The translations under genes and the position numbers were made by a program. 54,011 nucleotides of DNA from a virus (taxonomy: Duplodnaviria > Caudoviricetes). Shown piece after piece: positions 6,146 through 52,932 of this stretch. The stretch covers positions 1 through 54,011 of the IMG/VR virus record IMGVR_UViG_3300003465_000009; one strand, written 5' to 3'. The notes beneath the pieces are model-generated. The model worked only from the letters and a program-made list of their open reading frames with translations. It did not search any database and was not told the origin of the DNA. How positions within the stretch are numbered: position 1 is the stretch's first letter; every line of letters starts with the position of its first letter.

Positions 6146-6217
6146 TTGCGGGACCGGGTAACGCTCCCGGCTCGGTGAGCTTATGAGGCTCACCAGGACA
6201 CTTGCCCACCTCCCGCG
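6146..6217 (-). tRNA. tRNA-Met (CAT), initiator-like and atypical
   Basis: acceptor CGCGGGA/TCCCGCA with C1xA72 mismatch; anticodon arm TGAGC-CTCATAA-GCTCA; T arm CCGGG-AGCGTTA-CCCGG; no encoded CCA. Confidence 0.8.
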
Positions 6218-6304: not shown

Positions 6305-6856
6305 TTATCGCCGTCGGAAGAAACCACCGAACGGCTGAAACCGACTTCGACTTCTCGAACCAGACGCATTGCACGAGGCTGACGTACAGACTTCCTCGCC
6401 GGCAGTCTGATCTCCGCCAAACGCTCCGGCGTAGTAGGCGTTCCCATTGCGTCCGATCGCATACCCGAACCCACAGCGACTGACTCGCGAGTACAGCCAA
6501 GAGCGATGCGGCGGTGAGTTGAGCCACAAGCGAAATCCCGCGTTGTAGCTTCTATCGACACCCGAATACGCGATGACTTGCTCACCGCCTCCATGTTGCA
6601 TGACGCCGCGAGACGCCATCACTTCCGCCCAGCGTTGGGCGACTTGCGATAGTCGTTCATCCGTCGCTTGAGCCGGCAAACCGGCCTCGGCTCGAAACTG
6701 ATTGTGCAACTGAGCCATCGCCTCCGAATGACTGACAGGCTTTATCACAGGCGCGGAATCCGCGACTGAGTCATCGCCCTTCGACGTCGAGCACTGCAGA
6801 ATCACAATCGGTAACAGAATCGCAATCGCCACCATTAACTCGAACTTCCATTTCAT
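6305..6856 (-). CDS. secreted CAP/SCP-domain protein
   Basis: signal peptide; HNQFRA, LSQVAQRWA, MQH, GE, WLNSPPHR, GFG motifs. Confidence 0.85.
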   Translation of the reverse strand: MKWKFELMVAIAILLPIVILQCSTSKGDDSVADSAPVIKPVSHSEAMAQLHNQFRAEAGLPAQATDERLSQVAQRWAEVMASRGVMQHGGGEQVIAYSGVDRSYNAGFRLWLNSPPHRSWLYSRVSRCGFGYAIGRNGNAYYAGAFGGDQTAGEEVCTSASCNASGSRSRSRFQPFGGFFRRR

Positions 6857-6992
6857 TGCATTCTTCCTTGCCAAAAAAAGCGTTGAAAAAACAGCCCGCC
6901 GCCTACCGCGTATCGGCAGTTAGGGCAACGTCATCTTCGACTTCCACGCGGTGCAAATTCATCCTTGTCCATCCAGCAACGCTAGATGATTA

Positions 6993-11436: not shown

Positions 11437-11808
11437 GTGAGGATCAATGCCGTTCTAATGTTGGCCGTCCTGCTGATAGGCTGCGTACAGAATCAACCTG
11501 GACCGACCTACGATCAGGCCGTCGCCACTTTGGCTAATGAAATCAAAGTGCTCGATGACTTGGTTGCCTCACGACAATCGGAAGTGGACCGATGGGGTGG
11601 TGTCATGGACGCCTACCTAGGAGGCTCAAAAAGATTAGACGACGTTCCTTACGAACTCGCAAAAAAAACACGCGAAGAAATGTCCGCTGTTATGCGAGTT
11701 GAGGAACCGAAACATAAGCAAAGACTCGCGGAGCTGGACGCCCAAATAGAAAAACAGCAAGCCGCGGTCGATGCTGCAAAAAAACGTCGCGATGGCCTCT
11801 CACCCTGA
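11437..11808 (+). CDS. lipoprotein with coiled-coil
   Basis: signal peptide with LLIG-C lipobox; one of two convincing plus-strand genes. Confidence 0.75.
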   Translation: MRINAVLMLAVLLIGCVQNQPGPTYDQAVATLANEIKVLDDLVASRQSEVDRWGGVMDAYLGGSKRLDDVPYELAKKTREEMSAVMRVEEPKHKQRLAELDAQIEKQQAAVDAAKKRRDGLSP

Positions 11809-12411
11809 CGCTTTCGATTTCTGCTTCGCGATAAATGCGAGTAGTCGCTTCGATACCGCACTTTCGCAGCGGCCTACTCGCGAGGCAATCTCATCAAGAT
11901 TCAACCCGTGCCGATACCGCAGCTCGATCACGTCTGCCATCGGTGGCTGCAACTGAGACAGCACGTCGTCTAAAAATAAACGGGCTACAGCTGACTCCAT
12001 TTCAGCCGGCGCGTGATCGCATTCGAGATCCATCGACCTACCGTCGGCAAGTCCGTGGATACTCAAGATCCGATGACGACCGCGGGCGCTGGAATTCTTT
12101 TTGCGTGAACCGCTTGGCGACTGACTGCGATAATAGTCCCGGATCGCGCCGAACAACCGACGGTCGATGTAGGTCGAGAACAGATACCCACGCTCCGGGT
12201 CGAAACGCCGGACGGCCTCGATAATCGCGATAGCGCACTCTTGCAAAAGATCCTTCAAAGGCACCTGACCGCGTCGGCCGCTAGCCATCGCGAGCTGTGT
12301 CGCCCTCGGCTCAAGCGATTTAATCAGCTTGGCCATCGCGCCTTGATCGCCAGACTTCGCGGCGAGAACCATCGCCAGCTGCTTGCTGTTGAAATCCATT
12401 TCGATACCCAT
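11800..12411 (-). CDS. sigma-70 family RNA polymerase sigma factor (FliA/WhiG-like)
   Basis: region 2 DLLQE...EAVRRFDPERGYLFSTY...GAIRDY; region 4 HTH LDEIASRVGRCESAVS. Confidence 0.9.
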   Translation of the reverse strand: MGIEMDFNSKQLAMVLAAKSGDQGAMAKLIKSLEPRATQLAMASGRRGQVPLKDLLQECAIAIIEAVRRFDPERGYLFSTYIDRRLFGAIRDYYRSQSPSGSRKKNSSARGRHRILSIHGLADGRSMDLECDHAPAEMESAVARLFLDDVLSQLQPPMADVIELRYRHGLNLDEIASRVGRCESAVSKRLLAFIAKQKSKASG

Positions 12412-33735: not shown

Positions 33736-35013
33736 CTACCGGGTTGCGAGCCCGATGAAGCTGGATTGCGTATCGCTTCCGTTCGATTGAAACGGAGTGA
33801 TCGGGCTGTCCTCATAGGGACGGCCGTCCAGCCGCATGATGAATCGCACGGCCAGCTGATCCGTGAGGAACTCGACGTGCATCGACACAGCTTCCGAGAT
33901 CCCTCCCTTGCTGATCGTGACGTAGTCCTTCAGGTTGGCCAGCGTGATGTCGCCGACGGTCCCGCATGCCGAGCTGAACTCGCATGGGATAACCGGGCGG
34001 CCCATCAACGTCGCGTAGGGCGTTGACGACAGACCGCCGGGCGGGGTGTAGACGACTTGACCGCCGGTGCCAACCGACATGGTCATTTTGTTCAACTGCG
34101 GTTCGCAGTTTTGGTTGATGTACCAAGCCAGCTGGCTCGTATCACCAACCGCCAACCGTCGCGACCACATGTCCAGGATGTTCTGCGCGACGATCGTGCC
34201 CGCGCCTTGACCTGGGATCGCATCAACGGGAATGAACGCTGAGCTATTCAGGAATCCGAGCGGCTGAGCACCGCCTGCCCCGCGGAACACGGACAGCCCC
34301 GTCATGAAGTTGAATTCGTCGGTGGCCTTCTTCATTGCCCACTGTTCCAGAGCGTAAGCATTGTCGTCAATCAACTCTTGCGTGAGGTAAATCACGACCG
34401 CGAGCTTCTTGAGTTTCAGCTCCGTCTCCGCCAATTTCGGCGCGCTCTTTTCGATGTCGCCGCCTTCGCCAACCCAGTAAGCCCGGATGCCACCCGACCG
34501 ACTGCCGGTTGCGCGGCTGGTTTCCGCGTTGCGCGGGAAAGTCATGCGATTGCCGCCGACGGTGAAGTTGTCGGTCCGGCTGAAAATGTCGTTCGCGTAA
34601 ACGCGCTCGTAGATTCCCGGCGCGAACTCTGGCAGGATGGCAAAGCCACCGTCTGCCCCGGCCGAGGTGCTCATGCCTTGAATGGTTTTGAAGCAACCGA
34701 AATACTGCTGCGTGAAATCGAGAATCTTCGCGGAGTTTCCGCCGACTTCGGTGTAGTGCGATTTCACACCATCGCGCAGACATTGACCGAGTGTCTTCCA
34801 AGTGCTGTAGGGCTTGTAACCCTCGGGCAATCGCGTGCGGCCGAAACCGCCGCCGATGTTCAGCCCCTTCATCACCGTCGGGTGTCGTTCCTCCTGGAAA
34901 TAGGACAGCGAGTCGCCGGTGAACCGACCGGGAGCCCACGCTTGATCCAGCTGGTCAAGACGGTCCAGGATCTTCTTCGACTGTTCTTCAATCACTTCCA
35001 TGCGGTCGGCCAT
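33736..35013 (-). CDS. HK97-fold major capsid protein
   Basis: ADGGFAILP, AYWVGEG, KKLAV...ELIDD, G.G..QPLG, TLMGRPV, F.TDQLA.RFIMR.DG.P. Confidence 0.95.
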   Translation of the reverse strand: MADRMEVIEEQSKKILDRLDQLDQAWAPGRFTGDSLSYFQEERHPTVMKGLNIGGGFGRTRLPEGYKPYSTWKTLGQCLRDGVKSHYTEVGGNSAKILDFTQQYFGCFKTIQGMSTSAGADGGFAILPEFAPGIYERVYANDIFSRTDNFTVGGNRMTFPRNAETSRATGSRSGGIRAYWVGEGGDIEKSAPKLAETELKLKKLAVVIYLTQELIDDNAYALEQWAMKKATDEFNFMTGLSVFRGAGGAQPLGFLNSSAFIPVDAIPGQGAGTIVAQNILDMWSRRLAVGDTSQLAWYINQNCEPQLNKMTMSVGTGGQVVYTPPGGLSSTPYATLMGRPVIPCEFSSACGTVGDITLANLKDYVTISKGGISEAVSMHVEFLTDQLAVRFIMRLDGRPYEDSPITPFQSNGSDTQSSFIGLATR

Positions 35014-35095: not shown

Positions 35096-36640
35096 CTAGC
35101 GACGGTTCGCCGGGATGGCTTTGTCGAGCCGCTTATTGATCGCGGCCAACGTGTTCTCGATCTCCGTCATTCGTTTCTGCTCGGCAGTCTCCGCCTCTGC
35201 ACTGGCAGTGCTGAGCACCTTGTCGAAGAAACTTTTTGCCGTGCCGAGCGACTTGCGTTGCGCCGGCTTCAAGTTCGTCGCCGATGCGAGTGCGGCCAGT
35301 TGCGAGCCGATGCCGCCGAACTGCAGCTCGTTGCGCTTCGATGCGCGGAGCCACGACTTGACGACTGACTCCGACGTGTCCGGCGTTTCTTCCTCGCCGC
35401 TGCTCGACAGCCCCGTCTGGTCCGGGTAGGACTTCGAGAACAGCCCCTCGACTTCGGTCAAAATGGTGCGAAGCGATTCGAGCAACGCCTCCGCGCCTTC
35501 TTTGACGTCCGCGTTTTCGACCGGCTTCAATGCCGTTTCCGCGACGTCAATCACGCCTTTGATCGACTCGTGAATGGATGTCAGCACCTGAGCGCCGAGC
35601 GGCGTGTCGTCCGGTTCGTCCTCGGTCTCGACTTCACCAGGCTTTTCCTCGCCGGCAGGCTGATCCGCTGGCTTCGCCGCACGCTTGGCAATTTCAGCCT
35701 TGACCAATTCCTGAGTGGCGTCGTCAAGTTCGGCCGACTTTTCGCCGACGGCTTTCAATTCGTCGTCGCTCATCGCGGCCAATGCTTCGGCGGTGTAAGA
35801 CATGGCGTTTCCTTTCGCCGCGTTCTCCGCGGTCAGTGTTTTCGCGGTGGTTTCCAGAGCCGGCGGCTCGACGATTTCAGCTGTCACTTCGGGTGGCTTC
35901 GCTACAGCCGTTGCCGTTAGAACTGGCTCGATCGCCGGTTGACTGACAGCCGGAGTTTCCAGAGCCATGCCCGGTGACCACGCCACTCGGTGCGGCGCGT
36001 AGGGCGTGAGCATCTGCTTGATGTGGTCCGTGATTGGGCGGCCGGCGAGTCGACCAACGGCCAGCGTCTTGGCGACGCACGCCGGGTTGACACCTAAACA
36101 GCCCCACGACCACTCGATGAGATCCGATTCGAGCGTCAACAGGATTTTTCCCAGACCCTCGATCGTCTCGTACTTGCGCGTGATCGGTTGAACGTGAATG
36201 GAGACAGCACGGACGGTTTTGTCCTTCACCAGTTCGTAGAGCTGGCATGCCTCCAGCGTCTTCTGCGTGAAGTAGCACGTCGCATCAATACCGGTCTCCC
36301 GGATGTCCAGCGACAGCGCCCCGTCTTTTTCGGACGATCCGACCGGGAACGGGATGGAGCCGAACCCATGATCCCAGAGCACCGTCGGATTGAGCCGGTA
36401 GTTGTCGATCCGCACGCCCGTCGGAACGATGACCTCTTTGACGCGGTCCGGGTTCAGCGTTGCAATCGTGGCGCGAGCGGACATTTCCGTGTCACAGCAC
36501 ACCGGATCAGCGATGCAATCGACGCCGATGCTATTGTCCAGCAGCTTGTAAACACTGCCCGGAACGCGCGGTCGATCGGCGAAGTGTTGAGCCACTTCCC
36601 GTGCGATGTCGAGTTGATCCGCTTCCAGTGCGTCGGCCAT
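35096..36640 (-). CDS. HK97-family prohead protease with C-terminal scaffold-like region
   Basis: VLWDH, RAVSI, LIEWS...NP; long acidic helical C-terminus. Confidence 0.85.
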   Translation of the reverse strand: MADALEADQLDIAREVAQHFADRPRVPGSVYKLLDNSIGVDCIADPVCCDTEMSARATIATLNPDRVKEVIVPTGVRIDNYRLNPTVLWDHGFGSIPFPVGSSEKDGALSLDIRETGIDATCYFTQKTLEACQLYELVKDKTVRAVSIHVQPITRKYETIEGLGKILLTLESDLIEWSWGCLGVNPACVAKTLAVGRLAGRPITDHIKQMLTPYAPHRVAWSPGMALETPAVSQPAIEPVLTATAVAKPPEVTAEIVEPPALETTAKTLTAENAAKGNAMSYTAEALAAMSDDELKAVGEKSAELDDATQELVKAEIAKRAAKPADQPAGEEKPGEVETEDEPDDTPLGAQVLTSIHESIKGVIDVAETALKPVENADVKEGAEALLESLRTILTEVEGLFSKSYPDQTGLSSSGEEETPDTSESVVKSWLRASKRNELQFGGIGSQLAALASATNLKPAQRKSLGTAKSFFDKVLSTASAEAETAEQKRMTEIENTLAAINKRLDKAIPANRR

Positions 36641-36760: not shown

Positions 36761-37042
36761 CTACTTCGCCTCGATAAACAGATCGCTCCAGGTTTCGCAT
36801 CCATCATAGCCCGAATGAGCCGTGATCTTGCATCGTCGCTTGACTTTGCCGCAAAGCATGCGCACGCGGCTCTCGTTCTCGCGGTGAATCGGTCTGCGGA
36901 TTTCGTCGCCAGATCCCAGGTCAGCCAAAAGCATTTGGAACTCAATGCCGCAGACAAACATTTCACGATCTCGATCTGAGTACCCGTCGGTGTCAATCCA
37001 GAACGGAACGACACACTCCCACTTTTCGTCACCGTCTTCCAT
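36761..37042 (-). CDS. hypothetical protein
   Basis: 93 aa, FVCGIEF motif. Confidence 0.65.
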   Translation of the reverse strand: MEDGDEKWECVVPFWIDTDGYSDRDREMFVCGIEFQMLLADLGSGDEIRRPIHRENESRVRMLCGKVKRRCKITAHSGYDGCETWSDLFIEAK

Positions 37043-37057
37043 AAAGGCGAATCCAAA

Positions 37058-38089
37058 TCACAGCAACACGATCGGCGCAATAGCCAACTGAGCGGCAGAT
37101 CGAATGCGAATCGGCGACGTACCGCCAGTCGCCGCATTGCTTAAACGTCGAATGAAACCGCGCACGTCCAAACTGCGAGCCTTCCGGCAGTCGATGCCAA
37201 AATCGTTGTCGACCGTGACGCAGTCTCGCACTGTCACGCATGTGCTTTGGGAGTCGATCGGGTCAATCAATATTGCGGTGGTCCCTGGAGCCGCCAGTGC
37301 CCCAGGTTGATTCTCGAAAACGCAGCTATCAATCAGAAGCGTTCCGATCGTCCCGACCCTCAGTCCGATTCCTGGCTTGTACGTCTCATCCGTGGAGGGA
37401 TCGAGAATATCGAACTTGACAGCTGACACTCGCATTGAGGATGGTCGAACCAGTTCTGTCATATCGAACGCGAGCCCGGTTCCGCAAAGTGATACCCACC
37501 CGTTGGCCCAGTGACCGCTAAAGGTGTCGATCAATCCACCGACATTGCACCCCATAACGAACGACTGGTCGACAACCCAGCCTGCGTTGTCTCCCGACGC
37601 ACCTTTTTGTAACCGGGCTCCAACATCTCCCCAAAACATTCCGACGTTGCGCAGCGACCAGCGGTTGACGTTGCGTAGATTCACGAGCGTCATCGTGCCT
37701 GGAGATCCCGTCTTCATCCCGCCGGCATCCCAAATTGACAAGTCCGAAATTGCCGGACCCGCCTGCTCAGTATCGGTCCCGAGATTACCGACGCCGTCGC
37801 ACTGCAACACGACCATGCCGGGGGTAGTGCCGATGAGGTTACTGCTCGACCTGCCGGTCGCCGCCGGAACTTCCCCGAACTTGCTGGCTCGGAACGCCCC
37901 GCCATTACTGCCACTCAGGCGAATGGACGGCTTGCTTACCGCGATGGTCTTTGAGACCAAATAGTCACCGGGCGGAAACCAGATTGACGAGCCGAACGGC
38001 GACCGATCAATCGCAGCTTGAATAGCCGCTGCATCGTCCGCAACTCCGTCGCCCCTCGCTCCAAAAGTTTTCACGTTGATGGATTGCAT
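37058..38089 (-). CDS. pectate lyase 3-like beta-helix protein
   Basis: INVKTFGARGDGVADDAAAIQAAID...WFPPGDY. Confidence 0.85.
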   Translation of the reverse strand: MQSINVKTFGARGDGVADDAAAIQAAIDRSPFGSSIWFPPGDYLVSKTIAVSKPSIRLSGSNGGAFRASKFGEVPAATGRSSSNLIGTTPGMVVLQCDGVGNLGTDTEQAGPAISDLSIWDAGGMKTGSPGTMTLVNLRNVNRWSLRNVGMFWGDVGARLQKGASGDNAGWVVDQSFVMGCNVGGLIDTFSGHWANGWVSLCGTGLAFDMTELVRPSSMRVSAVKFDILDPSTDETYKPGIGLRVGTIGTLLIDSCVFENQPGALAAPGTTAILIDPIDSQSTCVTVRDCVTVDNDFGIDCRKARSLDVRGFIRRLSNAATGGTSPIRIRSAAQLAIAPIVLL

Positions 38090-38091
38090 AT

Positions 38092-38280
38092 TTAATCCGG
38101 GTTCGCGGTCATGTTTCCGCAGTAGCCGCATTCGAGAGGCACGAGCGGTTCGCCCTGGCCTCGATCAAGTTCGATCACTGAGACTTGCTTGTGACCGCAC
38201 ATCGTGCATGTGCATGGACCTTGCCACCAACGGGCGTCGGGATCGACGTAGTTCGGATCATTCTCGTCAAGGATGCTCAT
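38092..38280 (-). CDS. Zn-ribbon protein
   Basis: CTMCGH...ECGYCG; ATGA overlap. Confidence 0.7.
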   Translation of the reverse strand: MSILDENDPNYVDPDARWWQGPCTCTMCGHKQVSVIELDRGQGEPLVPLECGYCGNMTANPD

Positions 38281-38729
38281 TCGATCAGTCCTTTTTGACT
38301 CTCATTTTCAATGCGTTCGGCGGACATGTCAGAAGCTTCCTGTTCAAGTTCCTGGAGAGGCTTCAAAGCTGGCGTCGCAGCAATATTCAATGCATCCTCA
38401 AGCTGAGACAAACGAGCCTCGATGTCCGCGTTTCCTTTTAGCCGCATAAGGTAATCCAGGATTGCTGTTGAAGCTTTGAGCCTGTCGCTCGTCTTTTCAG
38501 CCTTCTCAGAGATTTCAACAAGTCGTTTAGCTGCCCCAGCCGCTGCCCCAGCAAGGATTCCAGCAGCTTCATCCAAAATCCTCCGACGTGCGTCCCTAAC
38601 GTGATTATTAAATTCTGGATCTTCAAGTTGCCTCCACATGGTCCGCAAACTGACTCCTGTTAGCTTTGCGGTTTCGGCGACAGTTTCACCGCGAGCAAGA
38701 CACATTACAGCTAAATCGACGTTCCTCAT
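38277..38729 (-). CDS. HTH protein (TerS-like architecture)
   Basis: LARGETVAETAKLTGVSLRT...DPEF...RLKASTAILD; AGGAG RBS. Confidence 0.75.
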   Translation of the reverse strand: MRNVDLAVMCLARGETVAETAKLTGVSLRTMWRQLEDPEFNNHVRDARRRILDEAAGILAGAAAGAAKRLVEISEKAEKTSDRLKASTAILDYLMRLKGNADIEARLSQLEDALNIAATPALKPLQELEQEASDMSAERIENESQKGLIE

Positions 38730-38873
38730 TGATTCACACTCCTAAGGTTAAAAACTCCCCGTTTTGCAGGTCAGACGTTTTCTATTTACGAAGCCGTGCC
38801 AACCAAGTAAGTAGAAGTCTGATTACTAACGCCGGGGCACGCGGTGCCACGGGGAAACAGCACCGACCGCTAA

Positions 38874-39071
38874 CTATTCGTCGGACTCGCCGTCATCTTG
38901 AATATTTTGCGATGGATTTCTTTTTAGAAGTTCTTCCTTCACAATTTTCCGGACGGTGACACGAGTCACGTTTGACCGGCGAGCCATCTCCGAAACACTG
39001 AACCCGCGGTCGCGCAACCACATGATGAGACTCCGCGTTCCGTCGTCAGTCGCCTTGCCGCTAACAGCCAC
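38874..39071 (-). CDS. small HTH DNA-binding protein
   Basis: RGFSVSEMARRSNVTRVTVRKIV. Confidence 0.7.
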   Translation of the reverse strand: MAVSGKATDDGTRSLIMWLRDRGFSVSEMARRSNVTRVTVRKIVKEELLKRNPSQNIQDDGESDE

Positions 39072-39073
39072 GA

Positions 39074-39391
39074 CTACCCCGCTTTCATGCGTCTCGAAAA
39101 CGACGCTTTGGCTTGTCCGATCGTCAACACCGTCTTAATGACGAAGTGCCGCGCCTTCTCGATGCACACGAAAACCACCTGCTGCGGGTTGATCCGCTCA
39201 TCGCTCAACAGATAAAGCTTTCTCGACCCGTCGCGCAGCCTGTAGCTGGGGCCATACTCAATGCCCGTCAAAACCAGCCGAACCATGCTTCGACGAATAG
39301 CGCGTTGCGTAGTACACGATCCGCCGGACCGCTGCCGGAACCGGTGAACCGAATGCGATGTCATCACGATGCGTCGGCGTTGCCTTGTCAT
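39074..39391 (-). CDS. hypothetical basic protein (DUF4258/RelE-like?)
   Basis: TSHSVHRFRQR...VIKTVL; TGATG overlap. Confidence 0.6.
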   Translation of the reverse strand: MTRQRRRIVMTSHSVHRFRQRSGGSCTTQRAIRRSMVRLVLTGIEYGPSYRLRDGSRKLYLLSDERINPQQVVFVCIEKARHFVIKTVLTIGQAKASFSRRMKAG

Positions 39392-40005
39392 CACAGTGCC
39401 TCCGTGGATGGTGACCAGACCCAGCGAATCCAGCAGCGACAAACGGGGTGAATCGGCGGACCAGCGGCATACCTGTGCCGCCAGTATCGTTCTGGCTTTC
39501 CGTCAAGGCTCTGGCATTCTTTACAAACCTTGCCGTCTCGCTCAGTAAACCAGTAACCGACCAGGGTGCCGGCGCCAGACCGATTGACTTTCTTTGAGAG
39601 GTCTCGCTCGCCGCGAGTGATGGCCCGCGTGATCTCCGTCGCCGCGATTACGATCGCTGCCCCTGCCAGCGCGTGCCCGATCAGGAAGCCATCGTCTTTT
39701 TCGTCCGCGGCTGTGAACCGCTTCCGCATTCCCTTCGCGATGTCTTTCGCCAGTGCCGTCGAGTACCTGGCTGCCCATCGTTCGGCCCGTCGCGCGGTCC
39801 CTTCGAGCGGAACGACGTACGAGATTTCATCCGCCAGTTGCAAGTAGGCTTCGAGGTATGTCGCGCCCAACTCGCCCGCTAATGCATCGCGGAGCTTGCT
39901 TGGAAAATCCGCCCGCAAGTAGGCTTCCGGGTCATCACGGAACAGCGACAGTATCGCCGCCTGCAGGCGATTTTCATTGGCCACCCGGTTGGCAAGTTCC
40001 GGCAT
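39391..40005 (-). CDS. phage head morphogenesis (Mu gpF/SPP1 gp7-like) protein
   Basis: IAATEITRA, W.TERD.KVC..C..LDG, PPIHPVCRC. Confidence 0.85.
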   Translation of the reverse strand: MPELANRVANENRLQAAILSLFRDDPEAYLRADFPSKLRDALAGELGATYLEAYLQLADEISYVVPLEGTARRAERWAARYSTALAKDIAKGMRKRFTAADEKDDGFLIGHALAGAAIVIAATEITRAITRGERDLSKKVNRSGAGTLVGYWFTERDGKVCKECQSLDGKPERYWRHRYAAGPPIHPVCRCWIRWVWSPSTEAL

Positions 40006-40016
40006 TGTCGGCCTGC

Positions 40017-42374
40017 CTAACTGTGACCGTTGCCGCCGGCCGATACGCCGCGCATCCGATCAAATACCGAACCGTAAAGCGTGTCGACCGCATTGCCGGA
40101 CAGAGGGATAACTGTCCTGGCTCCGTTGACTCCAGAGAAAACGAGCTTGTCGACGGTGATGACTTGGCCGCTGAGCTCGCACTCGCCAGCGTATTGCTTT
40201 CCCTTGCCAGCTTGGACATAGGCGAGCGTGATGTGGGGCCGATAAGCGTACCCGCCTTCCCGATGTGCGAACGAGTCGTTGAGCATCTCGTTGGCTTCTA
40301 CGGCATCTTCGCTTTCGACCTCCAGGATCACGACGTCGGTGTCCCGAGACTCGTCGGCCTCGAACACAGCGATGTTGCCGATGGTCAACTCGACCGGGTC
40401 CAGCGTCTGCAGTAAGCGAGCGACCTTGCGAGGTGCCACCGGGAGCAAGCCGTACATGATCGTTAGATGCGGCTCGTTCTCGATGCCTTTGTCAGCGAGC
40501 GCTGACTTGGGGATCTTGCGTGCGACTTCCCGTATCTCGTCGGCGATGCCGATCGGGAAAATGGCGAGCACCGATGCGTACTCGTGCATCGTCTTGGCAG
40601 CGGTCCCATTGACCTCGCCGGCCGCCGTTTGCAGTTCCGACTCATCATTCGGCGTAGCCAGCAAGCCGTCGATCGTTTGCGCCGCCAAGCCAATCGAGCT
40701 GAGAAACACCTTCGCCCGCTGCTCGTCGATCTTCCCGGATGCGAGATCATTCAGCACGTCGTCAATCGCGCGACGATTGCGGATCAGCTGCTGACGACTA
40801 AGGTTTCCAAGTTCACCGGTCCCGGTCGCAGTAGCCGCCGCGGCCGTTTCAACGCCACGCAACGGCGCGAGCATAGCCTCGATCTGCTCTGGCGGAATGG
40901 TTTGGAACGCCGCCCCAATGATGACCTTGGCCGAGTCAACCGGCAGTACCTTGCTCGACACCTGCTCGACGATCGAAAGCAAGCTGTCAATCTGCGCGCC
41001 ATTCAACGCCGTGTCCGATTGAGCCTGGGTGGGAGTCGCCGTCACGCCGGCTGCCGTTTCCACGTTCGGTGCCGCGGCCGGTTGCTCACCAGCTGAACCA
41101 GCGACTCGGTCGTCCCGCTCATCGTTGAACAGCTTTCGTCCGCGGAGCATGCGGATCTCACCGACGGTGATAGCGCCCGCCTGCAGGTCGGTTTGAATCT
41201 GTTGCTCCAGAATCTCAGGGTCATCGACTGTCGGGCAGGTTAGTTCAAGCGTTAAGTTTTCCTCGAACTCTACCGACTGTTGCTCGGTATCTTCCTCGGC
41301 CAGCAATGACGCCATCGGTTGAACGGTCAATTGAACCCACGCGCGGATACCCGCTGCAATGGAACCGTACGTCATGTTATCGACCAACCCGACAGCCGCT
41401 TTGTTGGTCCCATGAATCGCCAAAATGGAATCTCGCAGCTGCTCGAATCCCTCGACATAGCTCATGTCCTTGGGGTTCGTCGATAGCGGCGACACCGCCC
41501 CATGCGTAGCGACGAAAATCTTTCCGTGATTCCCGACGCCTCCGTATTTTTGGTTGAGCCGCTTCTCGTAAGCATCCAGCTCGGTTTGACTCGCTGCTTC
41601 GTAATCCTTCGGCGGACTAACCAACATGCTGGGGTCAGGACCGTTATGCATCTGAGCCCAGCGAGCACTATCAAGCATCGCGGCTGTGTCAATCCACTTT
41701 GACGCCGCCGCGGTCGGGCTGAACCCGTCGCCTTTCACGATCGGATGAGGCAGCCGAATAATCATCATGTCTTCGACAGAGATGACCTTGCCGACGGCGA
41801 GACTGTACCCGGTTGTCTCGGCGAATCCATCGGCATCGCGAGCCGAAAGTTGGCCGTGCGGCATGACTCGAAAACCACCAAGTGGAAGTCCGGGATGCGG
41901 TTGTATCGGTGCGCAGACGCACGTTGGCAGCACGTATCGCTCGACGGTGAGACCGAACGCATTGCGGACTTTCCACACGAGGCACGATCCTGTCAGACCG
42001 AGCTGAACGACTTGCTCGTAACGGAAGGATGATCCCGACTGCCACTTATTCGGCCTGGATTGCAGTTTGAGATAGCGATGGTCCGCTTCGACCGGGACGC
42101 CCGTGTCTTCGCGCTCGCTCGCCTTCTCGACGGACTCATCGGCGGGTCGGTACACAGCGACTTTAGCCTGCATGACCAGCTTGGCCATCGCGTGAATCGC
42201 AACGTAGTTCCAGCCGGTGAAGTGCTGTGATTCTGCGCCGTGGTCGCTGGCCCATTGACCGGGCTGCCCTTGGCGCACCGCTTGCCGCAATCCTGAGATC
42301 CCGCGAAGTGTCTTAGTCGTCCACCGCTGAAAGAAGTTGGTAACGACTCCCGCAATCCTGCGAAGGGGCTGCAT
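40017..42374 (-). CDS. HK97-type portal protein fused to a C-terminal 2H phosphoesterase (Acb1/LigT-like) domain
   Basis: portal motifs (RPNKWQS, LTGS, GFSP, DM, ITVGEIR) plus two HxT motifs PHLTI and PHITL; AGGAG RBS before ATG 42374. Confidence 0.85.
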   Translation of the reverse strand: MQPLRRIAGVVTNFFQRWTTKTLRGISGLRQAVRQGQPGQWASDHGAESQHFTGWNYVAIHAMAKLVMQAKVAVYRPADESVEKASEREDTGVPVEADHRYLKLQSRPNKWQSGSSFRYEQVVQLGLTGSCLVWKVRNAFGLTVERYVLPTCVCAPIQPHPGLPLGGFRVMPHGQLSARDADGFAETTGYSLAVGKVISVEDMMIIRLPHPIVKGDGFSPTAAASKWIDTAAMLDSARWAQMHNGPDPSMLVSPPKDYEAASQTELDAYEKRLNQKYGGVGNHGKIFVATHGAVSPLSTNPKDMSYVEGFEQLRDSILAIHGTNKAAVGLVDNMTYGSIAAGIRAWVQLTVQPMASLLAEEDTEQQSVEFEENLTLELTCPTVDDPEILEQQIQTDLQAGAITVGEIRMLRGRKLFNDERDDRVAGSAGEQPAAAPNVETAAGVTATPTQAQSDTALNGAQIDSLLSIVEQVSSKVLPVDSAKVIIGAAFQTIPPEQIEAMLAPLRGVETAAAATATGTGELGNLSRQQLIRNRRAIDDVLNDLASGKIDEQRAKVFLSSIGLAAQTIDGLLATPNDESELQTAAGEVNGTAAKTMHEYASVLAIFPIGIADEIREVARKIPKSALADKGIENEPHLTIMYGLLPVAPRKVARLLQTLDPVELTIGNIAVFEADESRDTDVVILEVESEDAVEANEMLNDSFAHREGGYAYRPHITLAYVQAGKGKQYAGECELSGQVITVDKLVFSGVNGARTVIPLSGNAVDTLYGSVFDRMRGVSAGGNGHS

Positions 42375-42449
42375 CCGTGGCTCCTGGAGAAAAGCGCCCC
42401 GCCGGTAAAATCCCGTAAACCGGACGGGGCAGTCGGCCCATTGCAATAG

Positions 42450-42482
42450 CCAGACTATCAATCCAAATGGATTTTGCAATAG
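42450..42482 (-). promoter_or_regulatory. putative portal-operon promoter (TTGCAA-N16-TAGTCT) with a palindromic operator in the spacer
   Basis: ATCCAAATGGAT palindrome; near-identical 16-mer at 46190-46205. Confidence 0.45.
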
Positions 42483-42492
42483 AAGTCAGCGG

Positions 42493-42714
42493 TTAAGGCT
42501 GAATATCCATCATCGCCCGCTTCGCTTTTTCGAGCCGATCGCGAGCGTCGTTCCGCTCGTTTGCCAGTTCGAGCGTCTGCTTTTTCTTCTGCTCAACCGT
42601 CGCACGAAGTTCCTCGTTTTGCGACTTGAGATCGTCGCAGCGCTCAAGAGCCCGGCACCATAGCGACGCCAGTACCATGACAGCGGCAATCAGAAAGAAG
42701 ACAGTCCATGCCAT
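42493..42714 (-). CDS. membrane-anchored coiled-coil protein
   Basis: GGAGGG RBS; N-terminal TM helix then heptads. Confidence 0.7.
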   Translation of the reverse strand: MAWTVFFLIAAVMVLASLWCRALERCDDLKSQNEELRATVEQKKKQTLELANERNDARDRLEKAKRAMMDIQP

Positions 42715-42738
42715 TTGTCCACCCTCCGTGAATGAAAA

Positions 42739-42869
42739 AATGCACGACCGTCGCTGACTCTCCAGGTCGCATTTCCGGGGCGCGTGCCTGGGGTTGGGGG
42801 ACTCCCAACGTGACGGGGGAGACAACCGTCGCTGTCTCGTACCGGCCTCGCCAGCAATTGGCGTGCATT
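42739..42869 (-). ncRNA. candidate structured RNA
   Basis: closing stem AATGCACG/CGTGCATT, several internal hairpins, ends in a U-tract. Confidence 0.35.
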
Positions 42870-43064
42870 CAATATCGTATTCGCCGGTGCCGATCCTGTC
42901 TTGGTATTTTCGGATAGATTTTTGAACAGATTGGTGTCGGATCAATCGGCGACTGATCGAAATCCAACCGGACTCGCCCGGAACCGGCCCGACTGCACAG
43001 GCGCACGACTTGCTGACTTCCACCGTGTTCAGAATTCTTGGCAAGTTAGACAAGGGAATGTGTC

Positions 43065-43286
43065 ATGCTCGTACTTACCCGCCGGCTCGGGGAAACGATC
43101 GTTATCGACGGCAATATCACGGTTGAGGTCGTAGAGATCGACGGCAATCGGATTAAACTCGGCGTCACGGCGCCGCGCGAGGTGCGCGTCGACCGTAAAG
43201 AGATTCACGACGAGAGGATTTCCGGCATCCCAAAGAATCTCCGGCACACTGGCCACTGCCGGCAGGAACCGGTGCTCGTGAGTTAG
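43065..43286 (+). CDS. csrA: carbon storage regulator CsrA
   Basis: MLVLTRRLGETIVIDGNITVEVVEIDGNRIKLGVTAPREVRVDRKEI. Confidence 0.95.
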   Translation: MLVLTRRLGETIVIDGNITVEVVEIDGNRIKLGVTAPREVRVDRKEIHDERISGIPKNLRHTGHCRQEPVLVS

Positions 43287-43420
43287 GATCGATCCTAGAC
43301 GCCTACGCTCACTCCAAGGGTTTTTGCGACTGTCTCCTGTCTGGCGAGCGGTACGGCACGGCTTCTGGACTCCGCATCGCTCCGTTGAAGAGTTGCTTGC
43401 TGTCCGTCTAGGACCTGTCA

Positions 43421-43639
43421 TCACATGATACCCAGCTGCTGGCACCGTCGCACCGCCGCCGTGAGTTTGTTGTTATCGCCGCGGATGCCTGCCCGGATGG
43501 CAGCAATCATCGCAAGCTCGCGTTTCTGCTTTTGCTCCCGAGCCTCCGCGACAGCCAGTTCGGGTGGATTCAATGTTCGGCCGAACGGCGATTTCGCCAG
43601 CTTCGCCGAAATGTGAAGAACGGTGTCGTTCAGGTTCAT
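43421..43639 (-). CDS. hypothetical protein
   Basis: 72 aa; TTGATA-N17-TACATG promoter-like site upstream (about 43740-43768). Confidence 0.5.
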   Translation of the reverse strand: MNLNDTVLHISAKLAKSPFGRTLNPPELAVAEAREQKQKRELAMIAAIRAGIRGDNNKLTAAVRRCQQLGIM

Positions 43640-43800
43640 CGGACTGCCCAGTTGCGATTGGAGAATGCTCGGCCGTCATCCTCCATGCAGTGAATCAGGC
43701 CACCCCGTGTCGCCCGATACCGCTGAGTGATTCGCCGACATGTAGCGCATATTCGCAAATCTATCAAAATAGATTTGTTCACCGGGACGGTTGTTCAGCA

Positions 43801-45534
43801 CTACGATTGCAGTTTGACGTAGTGGTCGTTCCAGCGAACGCAGCACGCTGGAGAATGCGGAGCGGCATCGGTATTCCCGGTCTCCCGGCACTGGGCGCAG
43901 CAATACTCGGTCCCCGGTTCGATGAGCCGTTGGCACCCGGCGGTCTTGCAGATGTGGCCGTAGCCGCCGTCTTGCGCAGGCGGATCGGTCGCACCGGCTA
44001 CAAGGAGTTTTTTGCGAGGGCGCGCAAGGTAACGATAGGCACCCGCTGCAGCGTCGACACGGTTGTCCTTCGCCCCGTGTGGAAACACGCACAGTTCGTC
44101 AATCAATGCCTTATTCCAATGGGCCTCGACCATATAGAAATGGCCTCTCTCGCATTCGATCGCGAGTGGCTCAGCTCGAATGGGTTTGGCAGTGATAGGC
44201 TTTTCGACGCCGACTCTCAATCCGCGAAGACGATCGACTGAAATCTCGGCTGACTGCTTTCCGCCGGAACCAGGCTCTTGCTCGAATCGCGTCATCACGG
44301 TCAGACCGTACTCGGTCTCGTCCATCACGGCTGTCAAGTCAATATTGTCGTCTCGCTTGCCGGCTGACCATTGACCGACGACAACGTCCAGAGCAAAAAA
44401 ATCATCGCCCTTTCGTCCAATCAAAACGCCGGCAGTGTCGTCGCCAGCATCTTGTGTTCCTGCTTTGTCCCAGTACCGACACAGTGCATCGAATTCGCTT
44501 GGCCGAGGGAGACGCTCCGGCTTAATGATTTTGTTGTTGAACCACTCACGCTTGAACATTCCGCCTTCGCGAGGAGCCGGCCTCTGCTGCAGCTGGCCAG
44601 CAGCACCATATGAGCCAAGGCTATATTCGAATTCGCGTACCTTGTCTTCACCAAAGACGGAAGGCCAAAGTAACTCTCGCCCAGCGAACTCCCCGCCCGG
44701 TGCGCGCAGATCGCTCCAAAACTCTCCCGTCGAACCTCGCCGAAATGGCATTACTTTCATTCTGTCTGGTTCGTACCGCATCGGCACGCACACATGAACC
44801 CAGTCCGGTTTCTTCAAGACGTGCCCTGACAGATCCTCCTCGTTCAGTCTCTGCATGACTCCAACACGTTCGGATCGTTTGGACGCACCGCGGAGTGTGA
44901 CAGTCAGGTCCCACCAATCGAGAACCGACTGCCGCTCGGTCGGACTTTCAGCGCGCTTGACGTTATGTGGGTCGTCAAAACAAAAACAGTCTGGATGCTC
45001 TCCCGTACCTCGACCATTTGGAATAGTGGATAGCCTGAATCCGCCGGCCGTCGTTTCGTAATACACCTTTTGGTTTTGGTCACTGGCAAACTCAACCTTG
45101 TCGCCCCACCGCTCTTGATACCACGGAGACTCGATCAGGTTTCTGGTGCGCACCGCATCGCGAATTGATAACCCGTGATCGTAACAAGCGAAGACGAATC
45201 GCAACCACGGCTTCCGCGCCCACCGCCACGCCGGCCAGAACACGGACGTGATGAGCGATTTTGTACAGCCGGGTGGCACGTTCATTAGGAGCTTCAATAC
45301 CGCCCCTTCGTGAACAGCCTGAAGCGCGTCGGCCATTAGCTCAACGTGCCAATTGTGTTGATACGGATTAGGCTCGATGATCGGCCAAGCCTGCAGGATG
45401 AAGTCGAAGAAACTGGCTTCGCACAGCTGCCGAGACGCATCAATTACTGCTTGGGGTTGTCGAAGCCAATCGCTCCACTGGGCTTCCAGTTGCGCCTGAT
45501 CCCATTGAGGCAGACATTCTTGCTGCGATTCCAT
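43801..45534 (-). CDS. terL: terminase large subunit
   Basis: NVPPGCTKS Walker A, FDDPH Walker B, VMQRL, YWDKA, EQEPGSGGK, FPHG..DNRVDA; C-terminal Cys-rich tail. Confidence 0.95.
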   Translation of the reverse strand: MESQQECLPQWDQAQLEAQWSDWLRQPQAVIDASRQLCEASFFDFILQAWPIIEPNPYQHNWHVELMADALQAVHEGAVLKLLMNVPPGCTKSLITSVFWPAWRWARKPWLRFVFACYDHGLSIRDAVRTRNLIESPWYQERWGDKVEFASDQNQKVYYETTAGGFRLSTIPNGRGTGEHPDCFCFDDPHNVKRAESPTERQSVLDWWDLTVTLRGASKRSERVGVMQRLNEEDLSGHVLKKPDWVHVCVPMRYEPDRMKVMPFRRGSTGEFWSDLRAPGGEFAGRELLWPSVFGEDKVREFEYSLGSYGAAGQLQQRPAPREGGMFKREWFNNKIIKPERLPRPSEFDALCRYWDKAGTQDAGDDTAGVLIGRKGDDFFALDVVVGQWSAGKRDDNIDLTAVMDETEYGLTVMTRFEQEPGSGGKQSAEISVDRLRGLRVGVEKPITAKPIRAEPLAIECERGHFYMVEAHWNKALIDELCVFPHGAKDNRVDAAAGAYRYLARPRKKLLVAGATDPPAQDGGYGHICKTAGCQRLIEPGTEYCCAQCRETGNTDAAPHSPACCVRWNDHYVKLQS

Positions 45535-46135
45535 GCACTACTCGCAATTCAGCAACGCTGAGCTGGGACAGCGGCACAGGTGGGGTAGACACCTCGACCT
45601 TCACCGGGTTCTCGTCATCACCGGAATGCTGGATTTTCTTCGGCTTATCAAGCCCCAGCAGTTCGCATCGTTTGTGAACACATTGCAAAACCTGATTTAA
45701 GAATGCCGGGTTTCCATCCCGTTCCTCACGCCGTTGCTCTCGAACTGTCTCGGTAACCTGTGGTGGCGCAGCCCCGCCGCTTTCAACCGGGGCGACGTTT
45801 CCGTGCGTTTGAGCAAGAGCCCGCGTCCGACTTTCCTTCCGGCTCAACTTGCGAGGAGACTTCGAGCGTTCCCACGCCGCCCATGCCTCTGATTCAATGG
45901 CGTCCAAGCGGTCGAGTTCATGCCCCAACGCCTCATCGAAATCACGAACTGCCGATTCTTTCCACGCCTGTTTGATCGCCGTGATGTCACGGCTGACTGC
46001 AGTTCGTTGGTTCGGCTTCAGATTCAACTGCCGGCAAATCTCGTATTGGTTTGAGACGCCACGCAATAATAGTTCGGCGACCCTGGACCGGCGAGAAAGG
46101 ATCTGAGCCTGTTGAGCATTACTTACCATGTGCAT
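45440..46135 (-). CDS. terminase small subunit-like HTH protein
   Basis: HTH (EICRQL...AVSRDI), ELDRLD, AWERSK, RCELLGLDKP; directly upstream of TerL. Confidence 0.7.
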   Translation of the reverse strand: MHMVSNAQQAQILSRRSRVAELLLRGVSNQYEICRQLNLKPNQRTAVSRDITAIKQAWKESAVRDFDEALGHELDRLDAIESEAWAAWERSKSPRKLSRKESRTRALAQTHGNVAPVESGGAAPPQVTETVREQRREERDGNPAFLNQVLQCVHKRCELLGLDKPKKIQHSGDDENPVKVEVSTPPVPLSQLSVAELRVVHGIAARMSASMGSGATGSPVERLASTTPSSN

Positions 46136-50018: not shown

Positions 50019-51515
50019 CTAAGCGGCGATAGCCGTGGTAATAGCTGCCGCCACATCGGGGCATACTGAGTTACCGATTTGCTTTGTCACATCGCCCTTG
50101 TTTCCATGAAACAAATAATGCGATGGGAATCCTTGAGCTAGAGACAGTTCAGCGTTAGCCAGCATTCGAAAGCCGACGTCCGCGACTCCTAGCTCTTGCA
50201 TCGTCGCGTACAGTCGGCGCTCTCCGTCTGTGCGTGGAGCAATCGCTACGGCCGATTGAATGACCGCGTAGCCAAGCCCACAACGATCACGAGTTGTCAA
50301 CGTGCAGAGTGGGTCGGTAACCGGGTATGCCTTGCCGTTGCCGTAGTAGGTGACGATGAACGGCATTATCAAATCGCCTGCGCCGCGAGTCGTCACCGTA
50401 GGTAGCGCATCGCTTAGGCCGTGCGAACGGTGCTGTTGCCCATCACGTTTGTTAACGTTCGGCTTGATAAATGGAATCGCGATGCCAGTCTCACCACGAT
50501 GCGCCGTGGTGATTGTCGGTAGTGTGCCACCGATCGAGGACAGCCGGCCGCCGTGCGTCAACTGGTAAATGAATGGCACTGCAAGATGAACGCCGCCATT
50601 AGCCGTCTGCGTCGGTGTCGGCTGTTCGATTGAACGCGGCGCGCCTCCGCCAAGTGATGACAAGGTGAAAGGCACTGCCATTCCATGATGAGCACCGCTG
50701 GCCGTCACGGTACTTATGGGTTGGTCGATCGACCGAGCCGTCATGTTGTTCCGCAATTCGACTACGAACGGTTCAACAAACTTTCGAAGCCCAGCGTCAA
50801 TCCTTAAAAGAGTTTTGTCTTTCAACGGATGTTTGCGTGCGAAGACGCTTTGACATGGTATCGACCAGTCGATGATTTCCGCCGCCGATCGCCACCGGTT
50901 CAAACGAAACCCCGGTAATTCACCACCGACACGTCGGGAGTGCGAAGGCTCTGGCCATCGGATAGAGCGATTACCCTTGCGGGCAACAACAAACAATCGC
51001 GTTCTCGATGTTGCCGCCCCATAGTCGGCAGCATTCAATAGCCGGTCATCGACTCTATATCCAGCAGAACGAATCGCTTCGATCCACGCAGAAAAGAAAC
51101 GACCTTGATAAGAAACCAAAGGCCTACCGTCAGCACCTACCGGCCCCCAGGATCTGAACTCTGGGACGTTCTCGATTACGATCCATTGAGGGCGGTGAAA
51201 CTCAACCCATCGCATCACGTCCCATGCACCGCTTCTAGCTTGATCGTTTGTCGGTCTGCCACCACGAGCCCGGCTGTGGTGAATGCATTCTGGCGAAGCG
51301 AAAAGCAAATCAATCTTCGGGCACTCACTGGGATTGACCTGATCTAACCGACTGTTGATATGCCTGGCATGCGGGAAGTTGGCGGAATGCGTCTCGACTG
51401 CAACCTGCCAATGGTTCACGGCGCAAACGACTCTCGCGGCTCCAGACTGTTCCGCTCCCTGTGATGTGCCACCCGCGCCGCAAAACAAATCCGCCGCTCT
51501 AAGAATTGAAGTCAT
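50019..51515 (-). CDS. DNA (cytosine-5)-methyltransferase
   Basis: DLFCGAGG, ASPEC, IENV, YG..TSRTRLF, RML, KQIGNSV. Confidence 0.95.
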   Translation of the reverse strand: MTSILRAADLFCGAGGTSQGAEQSGAARVVCAVNHWQVAVETHSANFPHARHINSRLDQVNPSECPKIDLLFASPECIHHSRARGGRPTNDQARSGAWDVMRWVEFHRPQWIVIENVPEFRSWGPVGADGRPLVSYQGRFFSAWIEAIRSAGYRVDDRLLNAADYGAATSRTRLFVVARKGNRSIRWPEPSHSRRVGGELPGFRLNRWRSAAEIIDWSIPCQSVFARKHPLKDKTLLRIDAGLRKFVEPFVVELRNNMTARSIDQPISTVTASGAHHGMAVPFTLSSLGGGAPRSIEQPTPTQTANGGVHLAVPFIYQLTHGGRLSSIGGTLPTITTAHRGETGIAIPFIKPNVNKRDGQQHRSHGLSDALPTVTTRGAGDLIMPFIVTYYGNGKAYPVTDPLCTLTTRDRCGLGYAVIQSAVAIAPRTDGERRLYATMQELGVADVGFRMLANAELSLAQGFPSHYLFHGNKGDVTKQIGNSVCPDVAAAITTAIAA

Positions 51516-51538: not shown

Positions 51539-52864
51539 CTACTTTTGGATGACAACCATCCGGGTTGACACGCCGGTCCGGTTGAACGACTCGATGCTGT
51601 TAAAAGAATTGGCCGGCAGCGCCTCGATCTCCGCGCCGACATACGCGAGCCATTGCTCGAACTCGTCTGAGCCTCGCGGCGTCATGATCGCCACCAACCG
51701 ACCGCCGTCTTTCAGCAGCTCGTAAGCGCGACGCACATGCTTCTCGTCTTGGCGTCGTTCAAATGGAGGGTTCATCAAGACTTTGTCGAACAGCTCGCCC
51801 GCCTTGAATTCTTCGAGGAAGTCACCGTGGACGGTCGCATAACCTTTCAGCAACAGGATCTCGACCAGCGAGTGACGCAGCTCGCACACGATCAACGCAG
51901 TGTTTGGACAGCTGCTGTTGATTTCGTCGGCGATTGAGCCGATGCCGGCCGACGGCTCCAGCACGCGGTCACCCTCGCGAATGTCTGCCGCTTCGAGCAT
52001 GCGAGCCACAACACTGACCGGGGTCGGAAAGAACCCGTCAATCTTCACGCCACGCAGTTTGCTGATCGCGTGGTCGAGGTCTCGCTTCCGTCGCTCCGCG
52101 GCCTCACGCTCGACGTCGGCCGATGATTTCACATTGTCGACCAGCTCACGCAATGCAACCGCTGCAGGTGACTTGTCCGCAAACTCATCGGTCTCCCGAT
52201 AGTCGTAATACCCTTGGGAGGCTCCGCGGGTGCGCATCATTTCGCAGACTTGGGCTTTGGTCTTGATCTCCAAAAGGATGTATGGGACTTGTCCGGCGTC
52301 GTAGGCTCTGGCCAATGCACGCAATGCGGCCTGCGCCCGCTGCAGGTTGTGCCCATCATGAACACGAGATGCGTGCTCGCGCCCCCGCTTCGGCGTCCAC
52401 CCCTGGGACATGGGAGCCAGCTTGGCCTCGATCGTTGACTCCATCGCGTCGGCCAGTTCGCGAAACTTCTCAGCCCGGTTCACGACGGCCGGCTTGGGCG
52501 TCGACTTCGGGGCTCGCTCGATATGCGGTTTACTGACAGCGGGTTCGCTATTCACCGGCACGGCCGGCGCGGTCTCACGTTGAATCGACCGAGCGACAGT
52601 TTTCTCGCCCAACTGATCGCGAAGCCACTCGGCGAACTCAGTCGCGGTCGATTCCTTTCTGAAGCCAAACCCCGCCGGGATCTCCTGCCACGCTCGCGAG
52701 TACCAGCCGCCGGTCTCAACGGCTTTCGCGTAGACTTTACGGAACAGCGGGGTATCAAGATTCCGGCCGGCGACAACCAACCAGTAATCGAATCGTCGGC
52801 GCTCGTTGAAGTGCTTTTGAACATCGACGCCAGCTGCAGGTCGTGAGAGAGTTGCTGTAGACAT
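51539..52864 (-). CDS. N6-adenine-type class I DNA methyltransferase with N-terminal extension
   Basis: FFPTP, VLEPSAGIG, GDFL, MNPPF, GGRLVAI; AGGAG RBS. Confidence 0.85.
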   Translation of the reverse strand: MSTATLSRPAAGVDVQKHFNERRRFDYWLVVAGRNLDTPLFRKVYAKAVETGGWYSRAWQEIPAGFGFRKESTATEFAEWLRDQLGEKTVARSIQRETAPAVPVNSEPAVSKPHIERAPKSTPKPAVVNRAEKFRELADAMESTIEAKLAPMSQGWTPKRGREHASRVHDGHNLQRAQAALRALARAYDAGQVPYILLEIKTKAQVCEMMRTRGASQGYYDYRETDEFADKSPAAVALRELVDNVKSSADVEREAAERRKRDLDHAISKLRGVKIDGFFPTPVSVVARMLEAADIREGDRVLEPSAGIGSIADEINSSCPNTALIVCELRHSLVEILLLKGYATVHGDFLEEFKAGELFDKVLMNPPFERRQDEKHVRRAYELLKDGGRLVAIMTPRGSDEFEQWLAYVGAEIEALPANSFNSIESFNRTGVSTRMVVIQK

Positions 52865-52932
52865 CCGTGCTCCTAGATGCTCTTGATCCAACCTATTCGT
52901 TTAGATTTTGCGATTGTTGGAAGTCTGCCGGC

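Follow-up and report, generated by a model that had tools for sequence, protein, structure and literature searches.

A gene on the minus strand of the IMG/VR virus record IMGVR_UViG_3300003465_000009, at positions 40017-42374, encodes a phage portal protein that ends in a two-histidine (2H) phosphoesterase domain. The whole record, a linear sequence of 54,011 bases with a CheckV completeness of about 60%, was analyzed and is called the window below. We confirmed that the 785-amino-acid product is one chain in which four parts follow each other: a portal core of the HK97 family, two conserved extension modules, a 2H domain with both of its HxT motifs, and a disordered tail. At a probability of roughly 55%, we favor a counterdefense phosphodiesterase that is packaged in the head and would be freed and delivered with the DNA, or would be active late in infection on unassembled portal.

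The reading frame runs on the minus strand from 40017 to 42479, 820 codons without a stop when counted from a TTG at 42479; translation probably begins at the ATG at 42374, 8 nucleotides downstream of an AGGAG ribosome site, and the stop codon occupies 40017-40019. The resulting length of 785 residues is the same as that of gene call P0003 in the protein collection. Between portal and 2H domain there is neither a stop nor a change of frame, and the frame continues unbroken through a linker of 186 residues. A first-pass annotation of this DNA had described a portal open reading frame (ORF) ending in a domain with two HxT motifs at 40017-40590, and this description holds up: a single frame carries portal and 2H Pfam matches that both exceed their cut-offs, and those coordinates agree with the folded core (40092-40583) plus the tail. 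The same annotation had allowed that the domain might be a separate gene joined by a sequencing error. That the record is a single metagenome-derived contig speaks for such an assembly or sequencing artifact. Nevertheless, a join of this kind is very unlikely, to the point that we give it next to no weight, because the frame is unbroken and the same fusion is present in relatives (5 of 44, 11 of 50, and 14 of 62 in the three samples described below); the order of portal, modules, and 2H domain recurs among independent contigs and across four portal families.

Two other modes of expression were considered. An internal start yielding a free 2H protein is not supported; an ATG does lie 2 codons before the folded core, without a convincing ribosome site. 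Programmed frameshifting or read-through into the following MuF gene was rejected, as the junction lacks a slippery run and the MuF gene begins at an ATG of its own in another frame. In a scan of 38000-46000 for promoters and terminators, the counts were not above those in shuffled sequence.

The portal core (residues 88-411; 41142-42113, minus strand) matches Pfam Phage_portal of the HK97 family (PF04860) at an E value of 6.3e-30, with 104.9 bits against a cut-off of 39.1, and PHROG 2662 ("portal protein") at E 2.9e-31; its gene stands beside that of the terminase within a head module. The narrower portal equivalog TIGR01537 is not reached (29.2 versus 112 bits), and among solved portals that of the Rhodobacter gene transfer agent, also of the HK97 family, comes closest in sequence, though weakly (E 0.004).

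Within the linker of about 186 residues that separates this core from the 2H domain lie two short modules, both found among the relatives by local phmmer: module 1 (ALNGAQ...MLAPL; 50 amino acids, residues 456-505; 40860-41009, minus strand) in 7 of 44 and module 2 (LSRQQL...IDGLL; 48 amino acids, residues 525-572; 40659-40802, minus strand) in 3 of 44. The linker and its modules match no Pfam family even at E <= 10, and an Atlas look-alike search with the linker had no hit scoring at least 0.9. The modules recur at the C termini of portals with and without cargo, some of which lack a 2H domain and one of which is the lambda-family portal P0047, and therefore belong to the portal rather than to the cargo. 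These two segments of about 50 amino acids may form an unnamed extension of the portal crown.

The folded core of the 2H domain comprises residues 598-761 (40092-40583, minus strand). PF13563, which covers the 2'-5' RNA ligase/2H superfamily and has a cut-off of 27 bits, is matched at 34.3 bits by the whole protein, at 37.8 by the domain alone, and at 37.5 in a six-frame search. The first motif is H-L-T (H636/T638, in EPHLTIMYGL; 40461-40469, minus strand) and the second is H-I-T (H714/T716, in YRPHITLAYV; 40227-40235, minus strand); both are invariant in all six aligned homologs, which are 28-34% identical. Four copies of the bare pattern H.[TS] are present in the 785 residues, and finding the motif by itself proves nothing; well beyond chance are the score of the profile, the invariance of the HxT pair, and the match of the fold.

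With a six-row alignment, AlphaFold2 gave a two-lobed alpha+beta fold for this region, with a predicted local distance difference test (pLDDT) score of 82.7, rising above 90 in the core, and a predicted template modeling (pTM) score of 0.74. Both HxT motifs sit at the starts of central strands (58-65 and 136-143 of the model). Foldseek with the domain model returned 52 PDB matches at E <= 0.001, and all among the matches listed are 2H proteins; lack of the 2H fold, which the first-pass annotation had named as grounds for abandoning the idea, is thus not what we find. Judging from motifs and model, the domain looks catalytically intact and active. The C-terminal tail of 24 residues (40020-40091, minus strand) is modeled as disordered, with pLDDT under 50 at residues 184-206 of the 207-residue query, and is not conserved in relatives; it contains tyrosine and phenylalanine and no tryptophan.

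Resemblance to Acb1 and to RNA-end enzymes

Which 2H family the domain belongs to is less easily said. The first-pass annotation had called it Acb1-like, and of this the 2H part stands, on the strength of PF13563, the HxT pair, and the fold. The Pfam Acb1 model (PF23474) scores 14.7 bits with the whole protein and 18.3 with the domain against a gathering threshold of 27, a value that 7 of 50 relatives of the module do reach, and the ThpR/LigT equivalog (TIGR02258) scores 17.6 against 65.7. Because the domain lies below both thresholds, its likeness to Acb1 is a resemblance and not a membership. A profile built from six domains and searched against PDB placed a plant cyclic phosphodiesterase (CPDase) first (E 3.8e-6), with Acb1 chains about equal (1.4e-5 and 1.5e-5); the single sequence matched only the Acb1 of phage FBB1, not significantly (E 0.46), yet with both motifs aligned. 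Comparison of the predicted structure, which gave identities of 16-22% to LigT and Acb1 and 7-9% to Usb1, bore out the 2H fold and showed no preference for Acb1. The substrate cannot be read from the fold.

Both groups of possible relatives differ from the window protein in how the domain is carried. Acb1 (T4 gp57B; Erwinia phage FBB1, 7T26/7T27) is a free soluble protein of about 150 amino acids, whereas the window domain is tethered to a structural protein, and its 18.3 bits compare with the 27 asked of an Acb1. Passages of Hobbs et al. (Nature 2022, PMC9117128) describe cleavage of the signals of the cyclic-oligonucleotide-based antiphage signaling system (CBASS) by free Acb1, and a C-terminal lid and base-stacking residues Y12, W74, F107, and W147; the tail of the window protein has no tryptophan. 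ThpR/LigT and the bacterial CPDases are free cellular enzymes acting on RNA 2',3'-cyclic phosphate ends, and the window domain is 15-20% identical to them (E. coli LigT, 5LDI; Deinococcus CPDase, 5H7E; Thermus TT0787, 1IUH).

The comparison with Usb1 bears on the first of two proposals made by Iyer, Burroughs, Anand, de Souza, and Aravind (J Bacteriol 2017, PMC5512222), who reported fusions of the 2H domain with MuF or portal proteins (Fig. 5B of that paper) and suggested, from parallel architectures, an RNase role; the second proposal was degradation of 2'-5' oligoadenylate and cyclic-nucleotide defense signals. An offensive RNase would use Usb1-like 2H chemistry in the cleaving direction and, once injected, would trim or cut host RNAs, much as is supposed for the PBECR RNase domains fused to MuF and portal. 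Given the low identity to Usb1 relative to LigT and Acb1, and a PDB profile search that gave no sequence-level match to Usb1, we consider this role improbable.

A role in RNA repair is somewhat more likely. The first-pass annotation had suggested, as an alternative, that the domain works on 2',3'-cyclic phosphates together with the phage RNA ligase, and the window does encode a ligase of the T4 Rnl1/gp63 type (3523-4569, minus strand; RNA_lig_T4_1 E 1.9e-16, phrog_562 E 7.5e-63). The 2H domain would then be a 2',3'-cyclic phosphodiesterase healing tRNA or mRNA ends left by the anticodon or abortive-infection nucleases of the host, Rnl1 would seal them, and the location on the portal would merely secure early presence or coexpression. 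The plant CPDase as best PDB profile match is consistent with this, and 2H plus ligase is treated as an established repair pairing in parts of Iyer et al. (Viruses 2022, PMC9503650). Against it, the ligase gene lies 36 kb from the portal gene in another module, and the score for the ThpR equivalog is far short of its cut-off. In the window we detected neither a polynucleotide kinase nor an end phosphatase or Tpt1/KptA, which is weak evidence because the record is incomplete.

The relatives argue in the same direction. We surveyed 50 of the 80 best IMG/VR records for ligases, namely 14 with portal fusions, 18 with solo genes, and 18 with large multidomain proteins on contigs of at least 41 kb. 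Rnl1 was found in 2 of the 50 and Rnl2-type ligases in 5, none of them in the 14 other portal-2H records, 5 of which are at least 80% complete; likewise, this version of 2H was never seen associated with RNA ligases by Iyer et al. (2017, PMC5512222). There is one exception to this lack of linkage: in the 103-kb complete viral record G034 (locus L004), a ligase at 38043-38522 that matches both Rnl1 and Rnl2 models adjoins a giant 2H-bearing polyvalent gene, a neighborhood that counts for repair. The proposed partnership with the ligase therefore finds little support beyond the presence of Rnl1. Repair may apply to the window phage but is not the general logic of the fusion; as the main function of the domain we hold it unlikely. 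The record that holds Rnl1 also has a tRNA-Met(CAT) gene at 6147-6216 (minus strand).

Carriers of the 2H module

The 2H module is widespread, and the portal is only one of its carriers. At E <= 0.001, a profile search covering 1.84 billion representative proteins found 6677 representatives; 1961 reached E <= 1e-30. Among the 150 listed, 96 exceed 1200 amino acids. Mostly the module lies inside polyvalent proteins of 1000-5000 amino acids, with the polyvalent markers LPD3, LPD5, ART-PolyVal, and ddrB-ParB beside it; other fusions join it to MuF and to four portal families. When 50 listed matches of at most 1200 amino acids outside the query alignment were scanned with Pfam, 11 had a portal domain (six Phage_portal, two Portal_Mu, and three Phage_portal_3) and 3 had a MuF domain, and others had LPD3, ddrB-ParB, ART, NUDIX, His_Phos_1, or TopoIB. 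P0004, P0127, P0139, and L065 are examples of 2H borne on MuF.

In IMG/VR, a relative is encoded in 526 stretches. The best 80 of these loci comprise 18 solo genes of less than 300 amino acids and 62 ORFs of at least 300; a portal start, from four families, was recognized by Pfam on the first 650 residues in 14 of the 62, counting two lambda-type portals that are 0.2 bits under the cut-off. Seen from the other side, PF13563 is present in 5 of the 44 relatives of the window portal, itself included.

Searches for examples in cultured phages and for clues to the host were less productive. The window 2H domain matched 15 phage records by tblastn, none of them annotated as portal, and for P0159, a typical portal-2H protein, none of 1146 records covered at least 80% of its length. 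Scanning the contigs of 185,579 species genomes with the window portal as a single protein gave no relative; a scan of the same genomes with an 11-sequence alignment gave one portal relative, L083, on a contig of a Planctomycetaceae metagenome-assembled genome, at 35% identity. This is a weak hint that the phage lineage may infect planctomycetes.

With local phmmer hits added, portal fusions make up 39 of 232 sampled proteins. On a FastTree phylogeny of the 232 domains, the division into portal and nonportal carriers needs 25 changes, compared with a mean of 36.5 and a minimum of 31 in 500 label shuffles; the domain is short, branches are long, and some of the "other" proteins may be unrecognized portals. 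The picture is of a module that appears to have moved repeatedly between carriers, serving as cargo in polyvalent proteins of phages and conjugative elements as well as on MuF and portals. The window's own 2H domain is divergent and has no close neighbor in this tree, the nearest being at a patristic distance of 1.9.

Portals related to that of the window carry other cargo at the same end, an InPase plus topoisomerase IB in P0042 and a 2H domain plus ADP-ribosyltransferase in P0043, and thus the C terminus of this portal clade is a swappable cargo site. By eye only, we also saw an unassigned DxDGT-containing stretch before the 2H domain in P0041 and P0043, and an HExxH-containing C-terminal part after it in P0020.

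Proposed packaging, delivery, and targets

The fusion stands in a head module of the usual order: terminase, portal-2H, MuF-like protein, protease/scaffold candidate, and capsid, all on the minus strand; an effector domain is attached to a portal and encoded among virion genes. The large terminase (43801-45534; Terminase_6C E 2.2e-4) lies 1.3 kb upstream of the portal gene. The separate MuF/SPP1 gp7-like minor head protein (39391-40005; Phage_Mu_F E 3e-4) begins 11 nucleotides after the portal stop in another frame; it matches PHROG head-morphogenesis families and stays below the cut-off of TIGR01641 (26.6 versus 39.65 bits). A candidate prohead protease of 514 amino acids (35096-36640) scores below cut-off with both Peptidase_S78 (15.7 bits) and TIGR01543 (19.9 bits). 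The weak HK97/S78 match lies within the first 180 residues; the long C-terminal part is acidic, rich in alanine, and scaffold-like, and the product is possibly a protease-scaffold fusion. The major capsid protein is of HK97 type (33736-35013; Phage_capsid E 9.7e-38).

In solved portal structures, the C termini line the capsid-interior face of the portal ring. With C termini facing inward and twelve subunits, there would be twelve copies of the enzyme inside the head, and the 2H domain is probably carried inside the capsid. The occurrence of the module on MuF and in polyvalent proteins suggests head packaging as the common theme, MuF being taken as a carrier of injected effectors in parts of the published work (Iyer et al. 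2017, PMC5512222).

In the reading we favor, the 2H domain would be built into the procapsid together with the portal, and the prohead protease would probably free it; the weak candidate at 35096-36640 is the only one in the window for this step. The freed domain would be delivered with the DNA, or else the 2H domain would already be active on unassembled portal late in infection. By a two-histidine mechanism it would cut phosphodiester bonds in host second messengers, such as cyclic oligonucleotides or 2'-5'-linked oligonucleotides, leaving cyclic-phosphate or 3'-phosphate ends as Acb1 does.

Much of this has been anticipated. Passages of the 2022 paper by Iyer et al. (PMC9503650) hold that MuF- and portal-fused 2H domains are probably head packaged and injected, and propose signaling in SMODS, cyclic-mononucleotide, and CRISPR systems as the target. 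Together with the 2017 study, they mean that the fusion design and its likely anti-immunity role are already predicted in print. The first-pass annotation had made the same proposal, that 12 copies on the portal could destroy immune second messengers during late assembly or be delivered with the virion; overall, its interpretation is partly supported here. The window protein resembles the class described there in having the portal followed by 2H in a terminase-portal head module, in sharing its 2H clade with giant proteins and MuF fusions, and in lacking a linkage to RNA ligases. It differs in being minimal: the portal carries a single cargo domain, the chain contains no embedded peptidase, and MuF is encoded separately downstream; moreover, its phage has Rnl1 elsewhere and its 2H domain is divergent. 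The window thus adds a clean minimal example, with a single cargo domain, a separate MuF, and Rnl1 in the phage, and no new principle. A further parallel, in the portions of the published accounts used here, is with the T4 Alt ADP-ribosyltransferase and the MuF-toxin fusions, enzymes that are loaded into the head for use as the next infection begins; they travel on ejected proteins or bear capsid-targeting signals, whereas the window 2H is on a portal, a protein not known to exit the capsid.

Several points weigh against a packaged and delivered counterdefense enzyme. Portals stay on the capsid after ejection, and delivery therefore needs cleavage after the extension modules. The assignment of the prohead protease is weak in itself, and no word of five or more residues is common to the linker and the scaffold, the capsid N terminus, or MuF, with a single 4-mer as the only shared word. 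In structure, the domain is no closer to Acb1 than to LigT-type RNA-end enzymes, the Acb1 model falls below its cut-off, and, unlike most relatives, the window phage does carry an Rnl1 ligase. Cleavage from the portal, exit from the capsid, and contact with a nucleotide signal are predicted steps. With a record about 60% complete, any target defense system named for this phage would be conjectural. A literature search, outside of which subscription-only papers lie, returned no experimental test of portal-, MuF-, or polyvalent-borne 2H.

One can envision instead that the domain serves only the producer cell, acting late on portal that is free or being assembled, at a time when CBASS-type signaling is set off by structural proteins, and then lying inert in the head. 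The portal is a late protein whose gene is ordered with capsid and terminase, it remains on the capsid after ejection, and we found neither a cleavage motif nor an embedded peptidase in the chain, all of which would suit such a role. It fits less well with the presence of the module on MuF and giant polyvalent proteins, described as packaged and injected in parts of the published work, and with the tethering of about 12 copies to a structure when a free soluble enzyme would be better for the late cytoplasm; solo forms do exist (18 of the best 80 loci). We think a role confined to the producer cell unlikely, about on a par with RNA repair, and both are live rivals. The packaged and delivered phosphodiesterase is the best reading, unproven as it is.

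A stricter version of that reading would have the head protease cut after the extension modules, so that twelve Acb1-like nucleases accompany the DNA out of the capsid and destroy the messengers of CBASS, Thoeris, Pycsar, or type III CRISPR before the phage expresses any gene, and in the window phage the enzyme might in addition mend cut tRNA ends for Rnl1; this we offer tentatively, and doubt more than we believe. To our knowledge, counterdefense at time zero has never been shown experimentally for any phage. If such enzymes are indeed released from portals and injected, phages could silence nucleotide-based immune signaling from the first moment of infection, our view of the timing of defense and counterdefense would change, and the portal C terminus would be a natural cargo-loading site for engineered phages.

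Several other genes of the record drew our attention. About 2.7 kb of nonhead genes (36761-39071, minus strand) separate the MuF-like gene from the protease candidate, an unusual insertion in a head module; it includes two small helix-turn-helix-like proteins and a 357-amino-acid protein of pectate-lyase fold (37058-38131). A 450-amino-acid methyltransferase (51539-52891, minus strand) has a C-terminal half that matches PHROG families of polyvalent-type proteins of 1200-3900 amino acids (best E 5e-66); it stands alone and adjoins a C5 cytosine methylase at 50019-51515. Finally, the record encodes a sigma factor resembling the extracytoplasmic function type (Sigma70_r2/r4; 11800-12411, minus strand) and a CAP/SCP-domain protein (6305-6874, minus strand).

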